Of a stretch of DNA of 53,556 nucleotides, positions 1,121-53,556 are shown piece after piece; position 1 is the stretch's first letter; each line of letters opens with the position of its first letter. The translations under genes and the position numbers were made by a program. Origin of the DNA: Patescibacteria group bacterium (lineage in GTDB: Bacteria > Patescibacteriota > Minisyncoccia > UBA6257 > GWB1-50-10); NCBI GenBank assembly GCA_030017555.1, contig JASEIC010000003.1, positions 1 through 53,556 on the forward strand, read 5' to 3'. The notes under the pieces are model-generated. The model was not told where the DNA came from, searched no databases, and saw nothing but the letters and a program-made list of their open reading frames with translations.

Positions 1121-1154
1121 TCTTCAAAATCTTCCATATGGAAGATTTTGAAGA
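1121..1154. repeat. Perfect 34-bp palindrome downstream of PaaX-like gene 1
   Basis: TCTTCAAAATCTTCCAT|ATGGAAGATTTTGAAGA equals its own reverse complement. Confidence 0.95.
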
Positions 1155-1180: not shown

Positions 1181-1711
1181 CTATTTATTTGAAGTTGTAA
1201 ACCGCTTAAAATGACGTTTTATATCCTCGTCGTTTTCTAAAAATTCTACCAACATTATTTTGCAATACTGGTTTATTTCTAAATCCACCAATAATTTCCA
1301 GAATTTTTCCGCTAAATAATCGGGGTAGATCCAAACGCTTTTTTGAAGTTGATAAAAACCTAAATCTTTAAGCAAACTTCTTAATATGTAGCGCTTTTTA
1401 TCAAAATTCACAGGCACGTCAAAAGTCACGAGCCGCCATTTTCCATCCCACGATTTGATATTTTTAAACTCGTCTTTAATAACTAATCGGTCAAAGAACA
1501 TGATTCCTTTTTTCGTAACTAAAAATTTCCCGTCTTGTTTCGTAATAAGACTATTTTTAATAAATCTATTGAGGCTTTGTCGGAGATATTTATTCTTTTG
1601 ACGATTTTTAAGAAACTCGTTGATAAGTGTTTCGGTTACGGTTTTAGCGCCAGCAAAAAATAGACCCCATTCCTTTATGTGTTGCCGCGCATCAATGGAA
1701 GTTTTTGCCAT
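1181..1711 (-). CDS. PaaX-family-like protein (N-terminal winged-helix, C-terminal Cas2/VapD-like fold)
   Basis: WDGKWRLVTFDVP...R..LR..L...GF..LQKSVW motif after a basic wHTH-like segment (LRQSLNRF...LVTKKG). Confidence 0.8.
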   Translation of the reverse strand: MAKTSIDARQHIKEWGLFFAGAKTVTETLINEFLKNRQKNKYLRQSLNRFIKNSLITKQDGKFLVTKKGIMFFDRLVIKDEFKNIKSWDGKWRLVTFDVPVNFDKKRYILRSLLKDLGFYQLQKSVWIYPDYLAEKFWKLLVDLEINQYCKIMLVEFLENDEDIKRHFKRFTTSNK

Positions 1712-1712
1712 A

Positions 1713-1744
1713 CTTCAAATTTTACCATATGGAAGATTTTGAGG
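1713..1744. promoter_or_regulatory. Degenerate copy of the 1121-1154 palindrome overlapping the promoter of PaaX-like gene 1
   Basis: CTTCAAATTTTACCATATGGAAGATTTTGAGG, 28/32 identical to the perfect copy; the minus strand reads TGG-TAAAAT-7nt-ATG. Confidence 0.8.
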
Positions 1745-1844
1745 AAAGTCATTATGCTATCGTCTCAAAAGTGCCTGCGGAGCGCAAACAAAATTGGGTG
1801 CGGTTATAAATTAACTTTGTTTTTTAGCATATTTTTATTATACT

Positions 1845-9040: not shown

Positions 9041-9962
9041 CAAGAAAATTTTATTAACGGGTGGAGTCGGCTTCCTGGGAAGTTGTGTCGTGGAGAAATT
9101 GATTAGCAAAGGCGTCAAAGAAGAAAATATAATTATTCCCCGGTCGCGGGAATATGATCTGCGTGACAGATCGGCGTGCGATAAACTTGTTGATGGCGTT
9201 TGTTTGGTCATTCATTGTGCCGCCAAAGTCGGAGGGATCGGATTTAACAAAGAGCATGCCGGAGAAGTTTTTTACGACAACGCCGCCATGGCCCTTAATT
9301 TGATTAATGCCGCGTATCGGGCGGGAGCGGAAAAATTTGTGGGCATTGGGAGCGTTTGCGAATATCCGAAATACGTCCCTATTCCGTTTAAGGAAGAAGA
9401 TTTATGGATTGGTTATCCGGAAGAGATAAACGCCCCGTATGGTTTAGCGAAAAAAATGATGCTTGCGCAGTCGCAGGCGTACCGCAAGGAATACGGTTTC
9501 AATGCCATTCATCTTCTTATAATCAATCTTTATGGCCCGGGTGATAATTTTAACCCTAAATCTTCCCATGTTATTCCGGCTTTAATTAAAAAAGTGTTTG
9601 ATGCGAAAAAAGAAAAAAAGAATTTTATAGAAGTTTGGGGAACCGGAAAAGCAAGCCGTGAGTTTTTGTATGTTGAAGATGCGGCCGAAGGAATAATTTT
9701 AGCAACAGAGAATTATAACAAAGAAGAACCAGTTAATTTAGGTTCGGGTATGGAAATTACAATTAAAGATTTAGTGGAATTAATTTGCCGCTTGATGGAT
9801 TTTAAAGGAGAAATACGGTGGGATGCTTCAAAGCCGGACGGTCAGCCGCGGCGTTGTCTTGATGTGAGCCGGGCCGAAAAAGAGTTTGGTTTTGGGGCTA
9901 AAACTGATTTTAAGGAAGGTTTGAAAAAAACAATTGATTGGTATGTCATGAAAAATAATTAA
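9027..9962 (+). CDS. fcl: GDP-L-fucose synthase family epimerase/reductase (Fcl/ColC)
   Basis: GGVGFLGS, AAKVGGIG, YGLAKK, NLYGPGDNF, SHVIPALI, WGTGKASREFLYV, KPDGQPRR. Confidence 0.9.
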   Translation: MFFNNKKILLTGGVGFLGSCVVEKLISKGVKEENIIIPRSREYDLRDRSACDKLVDGVCLVIHCAAKVGGIGFNKEHAGEVFYDNAAMALNLINAAYRAGAEKFVGIGSVCEYPKYVPIPFKEEDLWIGYPEEINAPYGLAKKMMLAQSQAYRKEYGFNAIHLLIINLYGPGDNFNPKSSHVIPALIKKVFDAKKEKKNFIEVWGTGKASREFLYVEDAAEGIILATENYNKEEPVNLGSGMEITIKDLVELICRLMDFKGEIRWDASKPDGQPRRCLDVSRAEKEFGFGAKTDFKEGLKKTIDWYVMKNN

Positions 9963-10078: not shown

Positions 10079-10840
10079 ATGAAGTTTTTACGATTTGTAA
10101 AGAAAATAATGGAATTTACTAAGAATTATATTTTCCGATTTTTTATATTTTCCGATTTTTTAAAATTTAGAAAAGCAATAGGAGGAAAACGATTTTCTAT
10201 AAAGTGGAAAGATTTTTACCCTCAAATACGTGATAAAACCAGAACTACCAATTTTGACCGACATTATTTATATCACACTGCGTGGGCGGCACGGAAAATA
10301 AAAGAAATTAATCCAAAGTTTCATATTGATATAGCATCAAGTTTATATTTTTGTTCTTTGGTTTCTGCATTTGTCTCGGTTAAATTTTATGATTATAGAC
10401 CGCCAGATTTAGAGCTGTCTAATTTAGAAGTACACCGCGGTGATCTTACGAAGCTTCTTTTTGCGGATAATAGCGTATATAGCATTTCGTGCATGCATAC
10501 TATAGAGCATATTGGACTCGGTAGATACGGAGAATCAATTGATCCAGACGGCGATTTGAAAGCGATAAAAGAATTAAAACGCGTTTTAGTGTCCGATGGT
10601 TCATTGCTTTTTGTTGTGCCAATTGGTGGGGAGTCGAAAATAATGTTCAATGCTCATAGAATTTATAGCTACGATCAGATTGTAGATTATTTTAAAGATT
10701 TTGAGTTGAAGGAATTTTCTCTTATCACGGAATTTGCAAAAAACAGCCTTGGAATTATTATTAATGCAACCAAAAAACAGGCAGAAAAAGAAAGTTATGG
10801 TTGTGGATGCTTTTGGTTTATAAAAAGAAGCAAAGTATGA
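10079..10840 (+). CDS. SAM-dependent methyltransferase-like protein (DUF268-like)
   Basis: SISCMHTIEHIGLGRYG...DPDGDLKAI..L.RVL motif. Confidence 0.7.
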   Translation: MKFLRFVKKIMEFTKNYIFRFFIFSDFLKFRKAIGGKRFSIKWKDFYPQIRDKTRTTNFDRHYLYHTAWAARKIKEINPKFHIDIASSLYFCSLVSAFVSVKFYDYRPPDLELSNLEVHRGDLTKLLFADNSVYSISCMHTIEHIGLGRYGESIDPDGDLKAIKELKRVLVSDGSLLFVVPIGGESKIMFNAHRIYSYDQIVDYFKDFELKEFSLITEFAKNSLGIIINATKKQAEKESYGCGCFWFIKRSKV

Positions 10841-50772: not shown

Positions 50773-52326
50773 GTGAAGACCTCAATAAGGCGAGAACAAA
50801 AAAAGAGGGTATTTTTTGATATTCAGAATGATAAACCCAAAGATTGGTGGTTAAGTTGGATAAGTTCAAGAAAAACTCTTAATTTAAAGAAAAGATTTTA
50901 TGAACGAAGGCCTCTTATAGCATTATTTATTGTGCTTTTGATTGGCGGTGGAGTTTTTGTCTTGAGAAGCGCTTTGACCAAGGCAGAAGTTGCGGATTTT
51001 TATCCTGGTAGTTGTCTCGGTACTTGGCAAAGTCCTCAAAACGCGCAAGGTATGCCGGAAACTTTTAATTCTTCAGAATTAATTTTAGACGAAAACAATT
51101 CCGCTGTTTTTTCAAGCGGAACTGAAAAAATATTTTGTGGCAGTTTCGTGCCTGATAGCTATGAATCAAAAGGTGATTTGAAAAACGTTGGTTTAACTCT
51201 TGTCTGGCGCGTAGAAGATTTAACCTCATCCAGTTCGGATGCCCAGTTTGCGCCTGCGACATCCACGCTTGAAAATATTCCTGAAAATATTTCAACGAGC
51301 ACCGAAGAAGAGTTAAAACCGCAAAGTTTTTTGCGCTATTTATTTAATTTTGCTTTTGCCCGCCTGCCATCGCCTACGGCTCAGGCCACTGACGGGCAGG
51401 CCGAAGAATCAAATGAGTCCGCCGAAGATTTAACTATTCAAGCTACAACCACCGAAGTCATGGTGCCTGTATTAGAAAGCACGACAACTGCCGATGTTTT
51501 AGGCGTTTCCACTTCTACAACAACTGAAACTACAACCATTATTATTGCTCCGCCGATTATAGCGCCTCTTGGGCCAATTAGTTCATCAAGTGACGTCATT
51601 TTATTTGAAACCAGCACTGTAACTTCTACAGCCACTACCACCGCTTTAGAAGTGATAGAGCTGATAATCGATGAAAATTTTATTCGGGTAAGTTTTAGTT
51701 TGAATGGTTATGATTGGTTTGAATTAGGCAGAGTTAATTTAAAAAACTGGTCAAGTTTTACCGCTACTTTGCCTGTAAAAACCTGGGATGAGCTTAAAAC
51801 TTTACAGATAAGCATAGAGGGGATGCCGACTATTTTAACAAATATGCCGCGGATATTTTTAGATGGTATGTTTGTAGAGGCGCGTTTTGAACTGCCGCCG
51901 GCTCTAGATACTATTATTTCGTTAATGCCCAAATCAGATGAGCAAGCCGTTAAAATTGTACTTCCCGCTGCAGAATTCCCGAAGCCGTCAATTCAGATAT
52001 TTGACCCGGAAGCTCGGCACTCATGCCGCGTTGAGCCGTTTTCAGTGACGATCAAAAGGGGCGGTGAGGCGCAATATTCAATTTTGCTTACGTCATTCGA
52101 CGACGATGCGGCTTACGAGCTTTTAACGGGCGATCTGCCCTCGGGCGTTTCCGCATCAATCTCGCCCATGGCCGGTAGAGAGACGTCGTCTTCCTCGTCG
52201 GCCTACTTCACGGTCGCCGAAGAAGCACAGCAAGGATCATTCAATATTGTGGTTATCTATCGTGAAGAAAACAAAGATAACAGGTTTATTCCTAATTTTT
52301 GTCAGCTAAACTTAATAATTGAATAA
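50773..52326 (+). CDS. Membrane-anchored surface protein with Ser/Thr-rich linker and Ig-like C-terminal domain
   Basis: One TM, STST/ATTT-rich middle, beta-rich C-terminus; GTG start after extended -10. Confidence 0.6.
   Translation: MKTSIRREQKKRVFFDIQNDKPKDWWLSWISSRKTLNLKKRFYERRPLIALFIVLLIGGGVFVLRSALTKAEVADFYPGSCLGTWQSPQNAQGMPETFNSSELILDENNSAVFSSGTEKIFCGSFVPDSYESKGDLKNVGLTLVWRVEDLTSSSSDAQFAPATSTLENIPENISTSTEEELKPQSFLRYLFNFAFARLPSPTAQATDGQAEESNESAEDLTIQATTTEVMVPVLESTTTADVLGVSTSTTTETTTIIIAPPIIAPLGPISSSSDVILFETSTVTSTATTTALEVIELIIDENFIRVSFSLNGYDWFELGRVNLKNWSSFTATLPVKTWDELKTLQISIEGMPTILTNMPRIFLDGMFVEARFELPPALDTIISLMPKSDEQAVKIVLPAAEFPKPSIQIFDPEARHSCRVEPFSVTIKRGGEAQYSILLTSFDDDAAYELLTGDLPSGVSASISPMAGRETSSSSSAYFTVAEEAQQGSFNIVVIYREENKDNRFIPNFCQLNLIIE
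51358..51402. repeat. 42-bp in-frame palindromic insert flanked by GCC
   Basis: GCCTGCC...GGCAGGC arms, inner GCCT/AGGC; encodes RLPSPTAQATDGQA. Confidence 0.6.
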
Positions 52327-52441
52327 TTGTGGAGTTTGTTCAAAATTTAAATTTTAAAGGCATTGGCTGTTCTTATATAAAAAGAAAGACGTGAAAATTA
52401 CTGATATATATAATGGTGAGTATTCTAGATGTTTTTGTTTA

Positions 52442-52457
52442 ATCTACGATCGTGGAT
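52442..52457. promoter_or_regulatory. Palindrome upstream of PaaX-like gene 2
   Basis: ATCTACGATCGTGGAT, sharing the ACGATCGTGG core with the downstream repeats. Confidence 0.7.
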
Positions 52458-52488
52458 ATAACGAAAATATACTTTATTATTATAAATA

Positions 52489-53079
52489 ATGTTTAAACAA
52501 AAAAGATTTAGAGAGAAAATAGGAGGGAAAACCATTATTATAGGATTAAGTGGTATTGCGGTTTTGTTGGCTTTTGCTGATGCCGCCGCGAAAACATTTT
52601 TGAGTTTTCCCGATCATAGAACTTCAATTGGTCACGTTTGGAAAAATCTACGGCGTTATCCGTCAAAATCAGTACGTGAATATTTTGAAGAACTTAAAGA
52701 AATAAGCGGCGTTAATTTGAGAAATATTTTATATCGTTTGGAACGGAAGGGATTGGTTAGAAAAACAGGTGACGGTTATGTTGCCACGTCTCTGGGCGGG
52801 GAAGTTGCCGAAAATGTAAAAGATTTGATTGAAAAATCCGCCCTTTGGGATGGCAGATGGCGGCTTATTACTTTTGATGTACCAGAAAAAAGTCGAAGAG
52901 ATAGAGATTGGCTTCGTGATATTTTACGATTGTACGATTATAAATCTCTTCACAAAAGCGTTTTTCTTGGCAAAATCCCTTTACCGGAAAAAATTTATCG
53001 AGAAATTTATGAACGAAAAATGAGCAGTTATATAAGACTTCTAACGGTGGGGGAAATAGATGAGGATGAATTAACATAA
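52489..53079 (+). CDS. PaaX-family-like protein (winged-helix plus Cas2/VapD-like fold)
   Basis: LRNILYRLERKGLV...Y.AT..G, then WDGRWRLITFDVPEK.R..RD.LR..L....LHKSVF. Confidence 0.8.
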   Translation: MFKQKRFREKIGGKTIIIGLSGIAVLLAFADAAAKTFLSFPDHRTSIGHVWKNLRRYPSKSVREYFEELKEISGVNLRNILYRLERKGLVRKTGDGYVATSLGGEVAENVKDLIEKSALWDGRWRLITFDVPEKSRRDRDWLRDILRLYDYKSLHKSVFLGKIPLPEKIYREIYERKMSSYIRLLTVGEIDEDELT

Positions 53080-53113
53080 AAAGATTAATATAGGAAAGTA
53101 TAGAGTGAATTAA

Positions 53114-53252
53114 TGGTCGGATTTCTATTTATCCCACGATCGTGGGCGGAGAGGAAATATAGTTTTTTCATTTAGTTTTGTTTTGATTTTGTTTGATATT
53201 GGATATTGGTTGGATTTCTATTTATCCCACGATCGTGGGTGGAGAGGAAATA
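53114..53252. repeat. Two 46-bp direct repeats with palindromic core CCCACGATCGTGGG, separated by 47 bp
   Basis: 53114-53159 and 53207-53252 differ at 2 positions. Confidence 0.9.
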
Positions 53253-53262
53253 CGGGAATTTT

Positions 53263-53350
53263 GGTTTAATATCGCGACTTTTTTGTTTATAATTAAAATT
53301 GGTTTAATTTGATTCGGTTTGATATCGCGGGCTTTTTGTTATAATTAAAA
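53263..53350. repeat. Imperfect ~36-bp direct repeat, each copy containing TATAAT
   Basis: GGTTTaATATCGCG..TTTTTG..TATAATTAAAA at 53263-53298 and 53316-53350. Confidence 0.7.
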
Positions 53351-53361
53351 AAATGGAGAGT

Positions 53362-53556
53362 TTGGAAAAATTCGTGATATTTTTCAAAGTCAAAACGCAA
53401 GGCAATAACATCGGACGTCAATATATTGAAAAACGGAATTATGATTGGAAAAATTCGTGATATTTTTCAAAGTCAAAACGCACGGCAATGACATCGGACG
53501 TCAATATATTGAAAAACGGAATTATGATTGGAAAAATTCGTGATATTTTTCAAAGT
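53362..53556. repeat. 83-bp tandem repeat (at least 2.3 copies, runs off the window)
   Basis: Units start at 53362, 53445 and 53528; copies 1 and 2 differ at 2 positions. Confidence 0.92.

Follow-up and report, generated by a model that had tools for sequence, protein, structure and literature searches.

The window analysed here is the whole of a 53,556-nt contig (C33) of a Patescibacteria genome (G000; 674,215 bp in 39 contigs, 37% G+C, 99.02% complete). Close to its right-hand end it encodes a short protein of the PaaX type, gene 2, which is bracketed by copies of a palindromic DNA site of its own. Gene 2 and these sites are a genuine example of an extensive pattern not described before, in which short PaaX-type proteins are bracketed by private tripartite dyads. 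The pattern consists of domain content, of sites and their positions, and of recurrence and privacy across the family; a search of the open literature, subscription journals not being covered, found no paper on it. With a probability of about 0.6, judged from sequence comparison, the gene 2 product is a repressor with cognate dyads, which would bind them as a dimer, repress its own gene at the upstream copy and act at a few extra sites.

Gene 2 and its sites

The gene 2 product is a minimal PaaX-type protein, with a putative winged helix and a Cas2-like domain and without the C-terminal effector domain of PaaX. Its residues 119-189 match PF20803 (PaaX_M, the Cas2-like middle domain of PaaX) with 53.2 bits against a Pfam cut-off of 24. 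The chain stops at residue 196 after this domain, and no Pfam match to PaaX_C (the C-terminal effector, or phenylacetyl-CoA, domain) was obtained, so the protein has no obvious ligand. All Pfam matches to winged helix-turn-helix families were sub-threshold (22.2, 15.4 and 12.7 bits), the Cas2 family PF09827 scored 20.5 bits, below its cut-off of 23.8, and neither Y1_Tnp (at E up to 1) nor any other transposase family was matched. An AlphaFold2 model built on 9 sequences (mean predicted local distance difference test, pLDDT, 68.6) has three helices and a beta hairpin at residues 47-99 (helix-helix-helix-strand-strand) and then a beta-alpha-beta-beta-alpha-beta domain; averaged over blocks of ten residues, pLDDT is 51-78 in the former region and 83-91 across residues 121-180. 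The first-pass annotation, made from the letters of the window, had proposed a structural comparison with Cas2. Foldseek placed E. coli PaaX (8a39, E 6.9e-4) and Rv0674 (3kfw) at the top and Cas2 chains next for the C-terminal domain; the alignment with 8a39 covers 192 columns with a TM-score of 0.32. A PDB sequence search gave no meaningful match, and a homodimer prediction for residues 44-196 (alignment A1) scored 0.04, which gives no answer either way. A hydrophobic N-terminal helix (residues 15-38; 52531-52602), modelled with low confidence, is kept in the gene-2 clade with G19 and A24 invariant (alignment A1), and is more likely the first helix of the DNA-binding domain than a membrane anchor. 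Homologs were found exclusively in metagenome-assembled genomes of Patescibacteria, and viral contigs yielded no relatives. No paa genes were noticed beside gene 2; they were not searched for genome-wide.

The site of gene 2 is tripartite, ATTTY-N10-ACGATCGT-N10-RAAAT, and occurs once upstream (U) and twice downstream (D1, D2) of the gene (Table 1). We recovered the upstream palindrome ATCTACGATCGTGGAT at 52442-52457, which with the ATG at 52489 leaves the 31 nt described in the first-pass annotation, as well as the two downstream repeats with a perfect palindromic core, which measure 49 nt and begin 93 nt apart. The perfect 14-bp palindrome of D1 and D2 is CCCACGATCGTGGG, and a 47-nt repeat family takes in U, to which the two downstream copies are 70% and 62% identical. 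Allowing up to 2 mismatches, CCACGATCGTGG occurs three times in the window (at 52444 with 1 mismatch, at 53134 and 53227 perfectly), compared to a mean of 0.52 in 100 shuffles, one of which reached 3. The T-rich stretch seen earlier between the repeats is there, but it is not a unique spacer, because Tandem Repeats Finder gives a 93-bp unit that spans it. Throughout the 674-kb genome the ACGATCGT 8-mer occurs six times, always between genes. RAAAT follows exactly 10 nt after it in five of these six sites (background 0.0095 per position), ATTTY stands at the mirror position in four, and in four the two half-sites are 28 bp apart. Two copies beyond U, D1 and D2 carry the whole motif, one in the clpP-tyrS spacer and one upstream of clpB, while the sixth site, on C4, has the 8-mer core alone in common.

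A promoter-like element overlaps U, and its second hexamer ends 8 nt ahead of the gene 2 ATG, which suggests that the mRNA is leaderless or almost so. Similar placement is seen in the family: 27/105 of its genes, compared to 16/176 control open reading frames (ORFs), have their best -10-like hexamer ending 3-8 nt ahead of the first ATG, and Shine-Dalgarno-like words are scarce (9/105 vs 28/176). These figures are consensus matches combined with an assumed start codon, as opposed to mapped transcription starts. At many loci the -10-like hexamer lies in or right behind the right arm of the upstream dyad, whose right end is a median of 20.5 nt from the ATG, and the downstream copy has no such hexamer.

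Table 1 Features of the gene 2 and gene 1 loci (window coordinates).
Feature	Positions	Strand	Description
Gene 2	52489..53079	+	Short PaaX-type protein, 196 aa; putative winged helix ~47-99, PaaX_M / Cas2-like domain 119-189
U, upstream copy of gene-2 site	52432..52478	.	Imperfect dyad core ATCTACGATCGTGGAT at 52442-52457; RAAAT 10 nt past the ACGATCGT 8-mer
D1, downstream copy	53111..53159	.	Perfect 14-bp palindrome 53133-53146; ATTTC 10 nt before and GAAAT 10 nt after ACGATCGT
D2, downstream copy	53204..53252	.	94% identical to D1; perfect 14-bp palindrome 53226-53239
Diverged tandem duplication	53114..53304	.	93-bp unit, 2.1 copies, 76% matches; holds D1, T-rich stretch, D2 and following DNA (Tandem Repeats Finder)
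Promoter-like TGGATA-16-TATTAT	52453..52480	+	Consensus match 9/12; first hexamer within right arm of U
Promoter-like TTAATA-16-TATAAT	53266..53293	+	Consensus match 10/12; 14 nt past D2; reads toward contig end
Gene 1	1181..1711	-	Paralog, 176 aa, PaaX_M 64.7 bits
Gene 1 downstream copy	1121..1154	.	34-bp perfect palindrome, begins 27 nt past stop
Gene 1 upstream copy	1712..1745	.	5 mismatches vs downstream copy; abuts ATG; holds TGGTAAAAT 7 nt before ATG

Recurrence and privacy across the family

The genome has three PaaX_M genes, namely genes 1 and 2 in the window and gene 3 on contig C2 (PaaX_M 31.0 bits), and all three have an imperfect dyad at the start and a perfect one after the stop, each with its own sequence. 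The gene 1 core, CTTCCATATGGAAG, is perfect at 1131, where it forms the centre of the 34-bp palindrome, and has 2 mismatches at 1722. The downstream copy separates gene 1 from a convergent gene and precedes a hairpin-plus-T-run (read by eye). For gene 3, the downstream palindrome is perfect over 26 bp, and the upstream one is imperfect and 34 bp long. The products of genes 1 and 2 had been described as alike mainly in their Cas2-fold part; they share 30% identity over gene 2 residues 77-194, a stretch that does contain the Cas2-like part but also includes the last part of the putative winged helix. When the whole genome was scanned for similar strong palindromes paired at a distance of up to 3 kb, three loci came up (gene 3, a Y1_Tnp gene and a pilin-peptidase locus), genes 1 and 2 falling under its threshold because their upstream copies are degenerate.

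Homolog loci were collected from 40 related genomes (30 loci) and from a species collection (80 loci), and 105 genes were analysable. Each gene was scored by the best ungapped match of its upstream flank (220 nt up to the first ATG) with its downstream flank (300 nt from the stop), and a score of 16 or more was counted as a flanking pair; 176 other ORFs of 130-300 aa from the same loci served as controls. A second, independent set came from metagenomes, where a scan with the single gene 2 protein gave no match and one with an alignment gave 80 loci, 64 of them analysable. Gene 2 is in neither count. The up-plus-down dyad layout was present at 73/105 genome-derived and 51/64 metagenome-derived loci (124/169 overall), compared to 4/176 control ORFs, and this together with the three local paralogs bears out the earlier proposal that each paralog has a site of its own. 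Paralogs within one genome have different sites; in one genome (G007) two paralogs share a core and differ in the arms, and a separate set of copies goes with each. In the nearest relatives of gene 2 (53% and 50% identity) the layout and the CGATCG centre are preserved and the arms are different. Overall, short PaaX-type proteins form 2135 representative clusters (E up to 1e-3), with up to five paralogs per genome.

The anatomy of the sites is also shared. Within a locus, the up and down copies share their outer arms, the inner spacer of 4-6 nt often differs between them, and the core is conserved; in one widespread subfamily the spacers are asymmetric. Central hexamers include CGATCG, CGGCCG, CATATG, CTATAG, CCATGG and others, and their type tracks the protein tree (29 changes vs 43-51 in 300 label shuffles). 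As related sequences share labels by descent, this agreement reflects joint inheritance and is weak evidence of co-adaptation on its own. Downstream copies lie a median of 17 nt past the stop codon, and at least 7 homolog loci whose core is asymmetric have their up and down copies in opposite orientation. The suggestion that the upstream copy is degenerate and the downstream one perfect holds for the three local genes, but is just a tendency in the family, where among 72 distinct pairs the downstream copy is more palindromic in 24, equal in 35 and less so in 13. The likely reason for the tendency is that the upstream copy must also hold a promoter.

Three further observations concern these genes and their neighbourhoods. 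The Y1_Tnp (IS200-like) gene returned by the palindrome scan (C7:9940-10629, L187; 229 aa, 35.7 bits) has similar palindromes at 9901-9923 and 10650-10674 and a third copy inside the gene (C7:10138-10170), a classical arrangement of the repetitive extragenic palindrome (REP)/RAYT kind. A 16-bp perfect palindrome with the gene 1 core (TCCATATGGA) at C35:40766-40781 stands right behind a TATAAT and contains an ATG; the gene starting there reads as glutamyl-tRNA synthetase, and could be leaderless with a site on its start, or the match may be due to chance. A Phage_integrase (tyrosine recombinase) gene adjoins the regulator in two relatives (G021, L130 407-1288; G018, L136 1128-1688).

Operators, copied palindromes or hairpins

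From this arrangement we infer binding, dimerisation, repression and the roles of the downstream and dispersed copies. The gene 2 protein would dimerise through its Cas2-like domain, the dimerisation motif in PaaX, and the dimer would read ATTTY-N10-ACGATCGT-N10-RAAAT as outer half-sites about 28 bp apart around a conserved core. With U covering the -35 region of the putative gene 2 promoter, bound protein would shut off its own transcription, as PaaX does at its promoter Px. D1 and D2, products of the 93-bp tandem duplication, are placed just past the stop and just before the promoter-like element that leads into the next transcription unit. As a guess, the downstream and dispersed copies may support looping as auxiliary operators, or may act at gene ends as roadblocks or insulators.

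Sites of this kind are found elsewhere in the same genomes. In G000, sites away from the regulator genes lie 70 nt after clpP and before tyrS, upstream of clpB, and after a tRNA (identified by eye), and the upstream site of gene 3 has a solo copy on contig C8 (C8:12450-12483) that is identical at 37 of 38 positions. This solo dyad stands about 190 nt before a TTATCCACA word, which we take to be DnaA-box-like, and the contig ends about 700 nt later. Counted over 41 genomes, the 10-mer CACGATCGTG has 60 occurrences in the 23 that contain a family match, compared to 7 in the 18 that contain none; its reversed control has 2 in total. Five relatives have 7, 4, 7, 10 and 2 occurrences vs 0 of the reversed control, and in each of them the whole 30-44-bp dyad recurs with the same arms. 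Gene-1-class dyads (CCTCAA-N18-24-TTGAGG) number 7-9 per genome in seven genomes. By their flanking ORFs, 38 dispersed sites comprise 12 convergent, 20 co-directional, 2 divergent, 2 inside ORF calls and 2 unclassified cases; the 18 of the gene-2 class are 7 convergent, 9 co-directional, 0 divergent and 2 unclassified, and the 20 of the gene-1 class are 5 convergent, 11 co-directional, 2 divergent and 2 inside ORF calls.

The sister genome G001 (99% complete) offers a comparison. A search for a PaaX_M gene gave 0 matches there at E up to 10, and all three G000 PaaX_M loci differ: the gene-3 slot is occupied by 215 bp of intergenic DNA that holds no palindrome, and the slot of gene 2 (L043, G001:C40, 1697-2496) holds a 132-aa gene of the Trp-repressor family (32.5 bits, cut-off 27). 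This gene has its own dyad, GGTTCAAT-NN-ATTGAACC, once upstream, twice downstream and in 2 copies elsewhere, with none in G000; the layout is thus not tied to the Cas2 fold. The clpP-tyrS spacer is about 115 bp shorter in G001, with the dyad among the missing DNA. By synteny, the next gene past D1/D2 encodes a large protein at the end of contig C39, and the same large gene follows the Trp-repressor-family gene. An idea of target-site duplication was dropped, there being no solo palindrome at the empty gene-3 slot of G001 and no duplication around the dispersed copies.

Several of these observations weigh against a repressor acting at operators. Dispersed copies prefer regions with a gene 3' end, and a promoter operator is not expected between convergent genes. 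The regulator's downstream neighbour is convergent in 27/73 loci, so the downstream copy cannot generally be the next gene's operator. The genes near dispersed sites have mixed functions; at the homolog loci the neighbours are, by Pfam, unrelated housekeeping genes. Copies within one genome can be identical over 34-40 bp (six of them in G018, for example), which resembles copying and not the independent evolution of operators. Among 62 up/down pairs, 63 symmetric position pairs are changed in both copies with complementarity kept, compared to about 15 expected if changes were independent, and individual dispersed copies have copy-specific symmetric extensions; neither is predicted if a dimer reads two half-sites independently. 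Finally, G001, in which no PaaX_M gene was found, holds three perfect gene-1/3-class dyads without such a gene between them (L165, G001:C9, 1045-1076 and 1541-1572; L166, 58-91; 32-34 bp, CCTCAA...CATATG...TTGAGG class), and no ORF of at least 60 aa lies between the first two. A heat-shock regulon, suggested by the sites near clpB and clpP here and near grpE, clpP and an HtrA-like gene in relatives (counted after the fact), was considered as the main explanation and dropped, since C22 encodes an HrcA homolog and the remaining neighbours are a mixture (four aminoacyl-tRNA synthetases, CorA, ribosomal proteins).

The main alternative explanation, which we consider unlikely, is that the dyads are a small population of extragenic palindromes copied to new intergenic places, as in REPIN/RAYT (REP-associated tyrosine transposase) systems. 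The single-copy protein that they flank would then serve to maintain or mobilise its cognate dyads, with the Cas2 fold as the part that acts on DNA, and any regulation would be secondary. This fits a gene flanked by cognate palindromes with 2-8 more copies elsewhere in the same genome, a separate copy family for each paralog (as in G007), near-identity over 34-44 bp between unrelated flanks, and the preference for gene 3' ends (12 convergent vs 2 divergent). The clpP-tyrS dyad that is present or absent with its ~115 extra bp, the near-identical copy of the gene 3 site on another contig, the orphan dyads of the sister genome and the excess of compensatory changes, which keep the palindromes self-complementary, point the same way. 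The same logic is seen in the REPIN/RAYT systems described in two reports (PMC3116915, PMC3337134), and a true Y1_Tnp gene flanked by its own palindromes is present on contig C7. However, the protein is a PaaX homolog that matches no transposase family, there are just 2-10 copies per genome and not tens to hundreds, no target-site duplication is visible in aligned copies, and viral contigs yielded no relatives. The Trp-repressor-family gene of G001 has the same layout without the Cas2 fold. In nine loci of G005, dyads mix two half-site variants (..CCACATATGTGG.., ..CTGCATATGCAG.. and hybrids); such hybrids fit recognition by protein rather than hairpin pairing, and would be expected if two specificities or a heterodimer were at work. 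Together with the non-complementary spacers of the gene-2 sites, they fit a protein that reads DNA. A related and equally doubtful possibility is a binder-plus-palindrome system, in which short winged-helix/Cas2-fold proteins would recognise, keep symmetric and perhaps spread private 30-45-bp palindromes, which would stand on both sides of the protein's gene and serve as marks of gene ends.

The symmetric changes could also be explained by pairing in RNA. Hairpins in 5' or 3' untranslated regions, bound by protein or not, might act in stability, processing or termination, and we regard this as improbable. Many copies lie just past stop codons, in two cases between the stop codon and a hairpin-plus-T-run (by eye), and compensatory changes and copy-specific stem extensions are what stems would show. 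The gene 1 downstream copy folds strongly (-14.1 kcal/mol, z -7.4), and the Rho RNA-binding domain (PF07497) was not found in G000 at E up to 0.01. Against hairpins, D1 and D2 fold no better than shuffled sequence (z -0.45 and -1.3), and mismatched pairs show no clear excess of G-T over A-C on the sense strand (71 vs 58), hence no sign of one transcribed strand. The -10-like hexamer and the ATG are often inside or directly beside the upstream copy, which would place this copy outside the gene's own transcript. Searches for terminator-like sites (a G+C-rich hairpin with a T run) in 52250-53556 and for Rfam families in 52300-53556 (E up to 1) found none. The palindromes are also symmetric through the centre, which a hairpin loop does not need, a weak point because the terminator-like hairpins of G000 are symmetric too. 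The folding of the D copies, the G005 hybrids and the asymmetric spacers of the widespread subfamily are all in favour of recognition by protein over hairpins.

The first-pass annotation had also remarked on a superficial resemblance to a one-spacer array beside a Cas2-fold gene. Two direct 49-nt repeats with a palindromic core do lie beside a gene with a Cas2-like C-terminal fold. We give a CRISPR-like array practically no credence. The array fails because no Cas1 was found in the genome (PF01867, 0 matches at E up to 1 in the 99.02% complete genome, with a control positive in 9/14 known genomes) and because the 'spacer' is part of the duplicated 93-bp unit. Moreover, PaaX_M scores far over its own cut-off and Cas2 (PF09827) remains under its threshold, and across the family the repeats bracket the gene itself and can be mutually inverted.

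Some other repeats were observed around the gene 2 locus and in the same genome. Between D2 and the contig end, 53262-53352 holds two copies (18-nt core 89% alike) 52 nt apart with TATAAT-like words, which makes three local duplications within some 450 bp between genes. It is followed by an 83-bp unit (2.3 copies, 98% matches, period not a multiple of 3) that runs from 53362 to the contig end at 53556. This unit probably broke the assembly, and synteny with G001 predicts that the end of C39 comes next; a fuzzy search for the motif of the repeat near clpB was unspecific. Elsewhere in G000, G+C-rich terminator-like perfect palindromes recur near-identically (C4:300 and C39:12696, identical 30-mers; C4:11110 and C35:6498), with symmetric centres such as CCATGG or AATTAATT.

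Significance and comparison with known systems

Patescibacteria have very small genomes with few recognisable regulators, and their transcription control and punctuation are almost unknown. For each short PaaX-type protein, the DNA on either side of the gene directly indicates the likely target. More than 100 natural protein-site pairs thereby form a data set on how a dimer of winged helix and Cas2-like domain would read a tripartite dyad, and may help to predict the regulons of uncultured bacteria. Whether the dyads are operators, protein-dependent insulators or low-copy mobile palindromes is a question raised by their location at gene ends, by the compensatory changes and by the orphan copies. 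If the binder-plus-palindrome idea were true, it would be a functional parallel to REPIN/RAYT built on a Cas2-fold protein, and the first Cas2-fold domain tied to specific palindromic repeats outside CRISPR.

The closest known protein is PaaX of E. coli and Pseudomonas (8a39; PF20803), the repressor of their genes for phenylacetate catabolism, which has a winged helix followed by a Cas2-like domain; gene 2 encodes a Cas2-like domain behind a putative winged helix. According to a review (PMC9493321), the E. coli site is TGATTC(N27)GAATCA, and PaaX represses its own promoter Px by blocking RNA polymerase. Both systems thus have inverted half-sites that are far apart, with N27 in E. coli compared to about 28 bp here, and both have a site at the protein's own promoter, in the case of gene 2 as judged by sequence only. 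In contrast to PaaX (~305 aa in the 8a39 chain), gene 2 encodes 196 aa without the C-terminal effector domain, no paa link was seen beside the gene, the sites have a strongly conserved central core, and the gene is bracketed by them. Its family also differs in having several paralogs per genome, each with private sites, and 2135 representative clusters of short proteins.

In the published REPIN/RAYT systems, a gene present in single copy is bordered by repeats of its own, and one genome has several private families (PMC3116915, PMC3337134). The gene 2 family shares with them the flanking extragenic palindromes, further intergenic copies, private families and the maintained self-complementarity. 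It differs in that the protein is not a Y1/HUH transposase, copy numbers are tiny and mobility is not more than conjecture; moreover, each site is one continuous palindrome, compared to the two inverted REPs of a REPIN. CRISPR arrays with Cas2 are similar in the fold of the C-terminal domain and in partly palindromic repeats of 30-45 bp, whereas gene 2 has no Cas1, unique spacers or array, and its repeats can be mutually inverted. Repressors whose gene lies between their own operators are represented by phage lambda CI, with OR and OL, and by the lac repressor, with O1 and the auxiliary O2. Unlike these, a third of the dispersed sites of the gene 2 family lie between convergent genes, and oligomers above the dimer are unsupported; similar to these, a weaker promoter site could cooperate by looping with a strong one several hundred bp distant.

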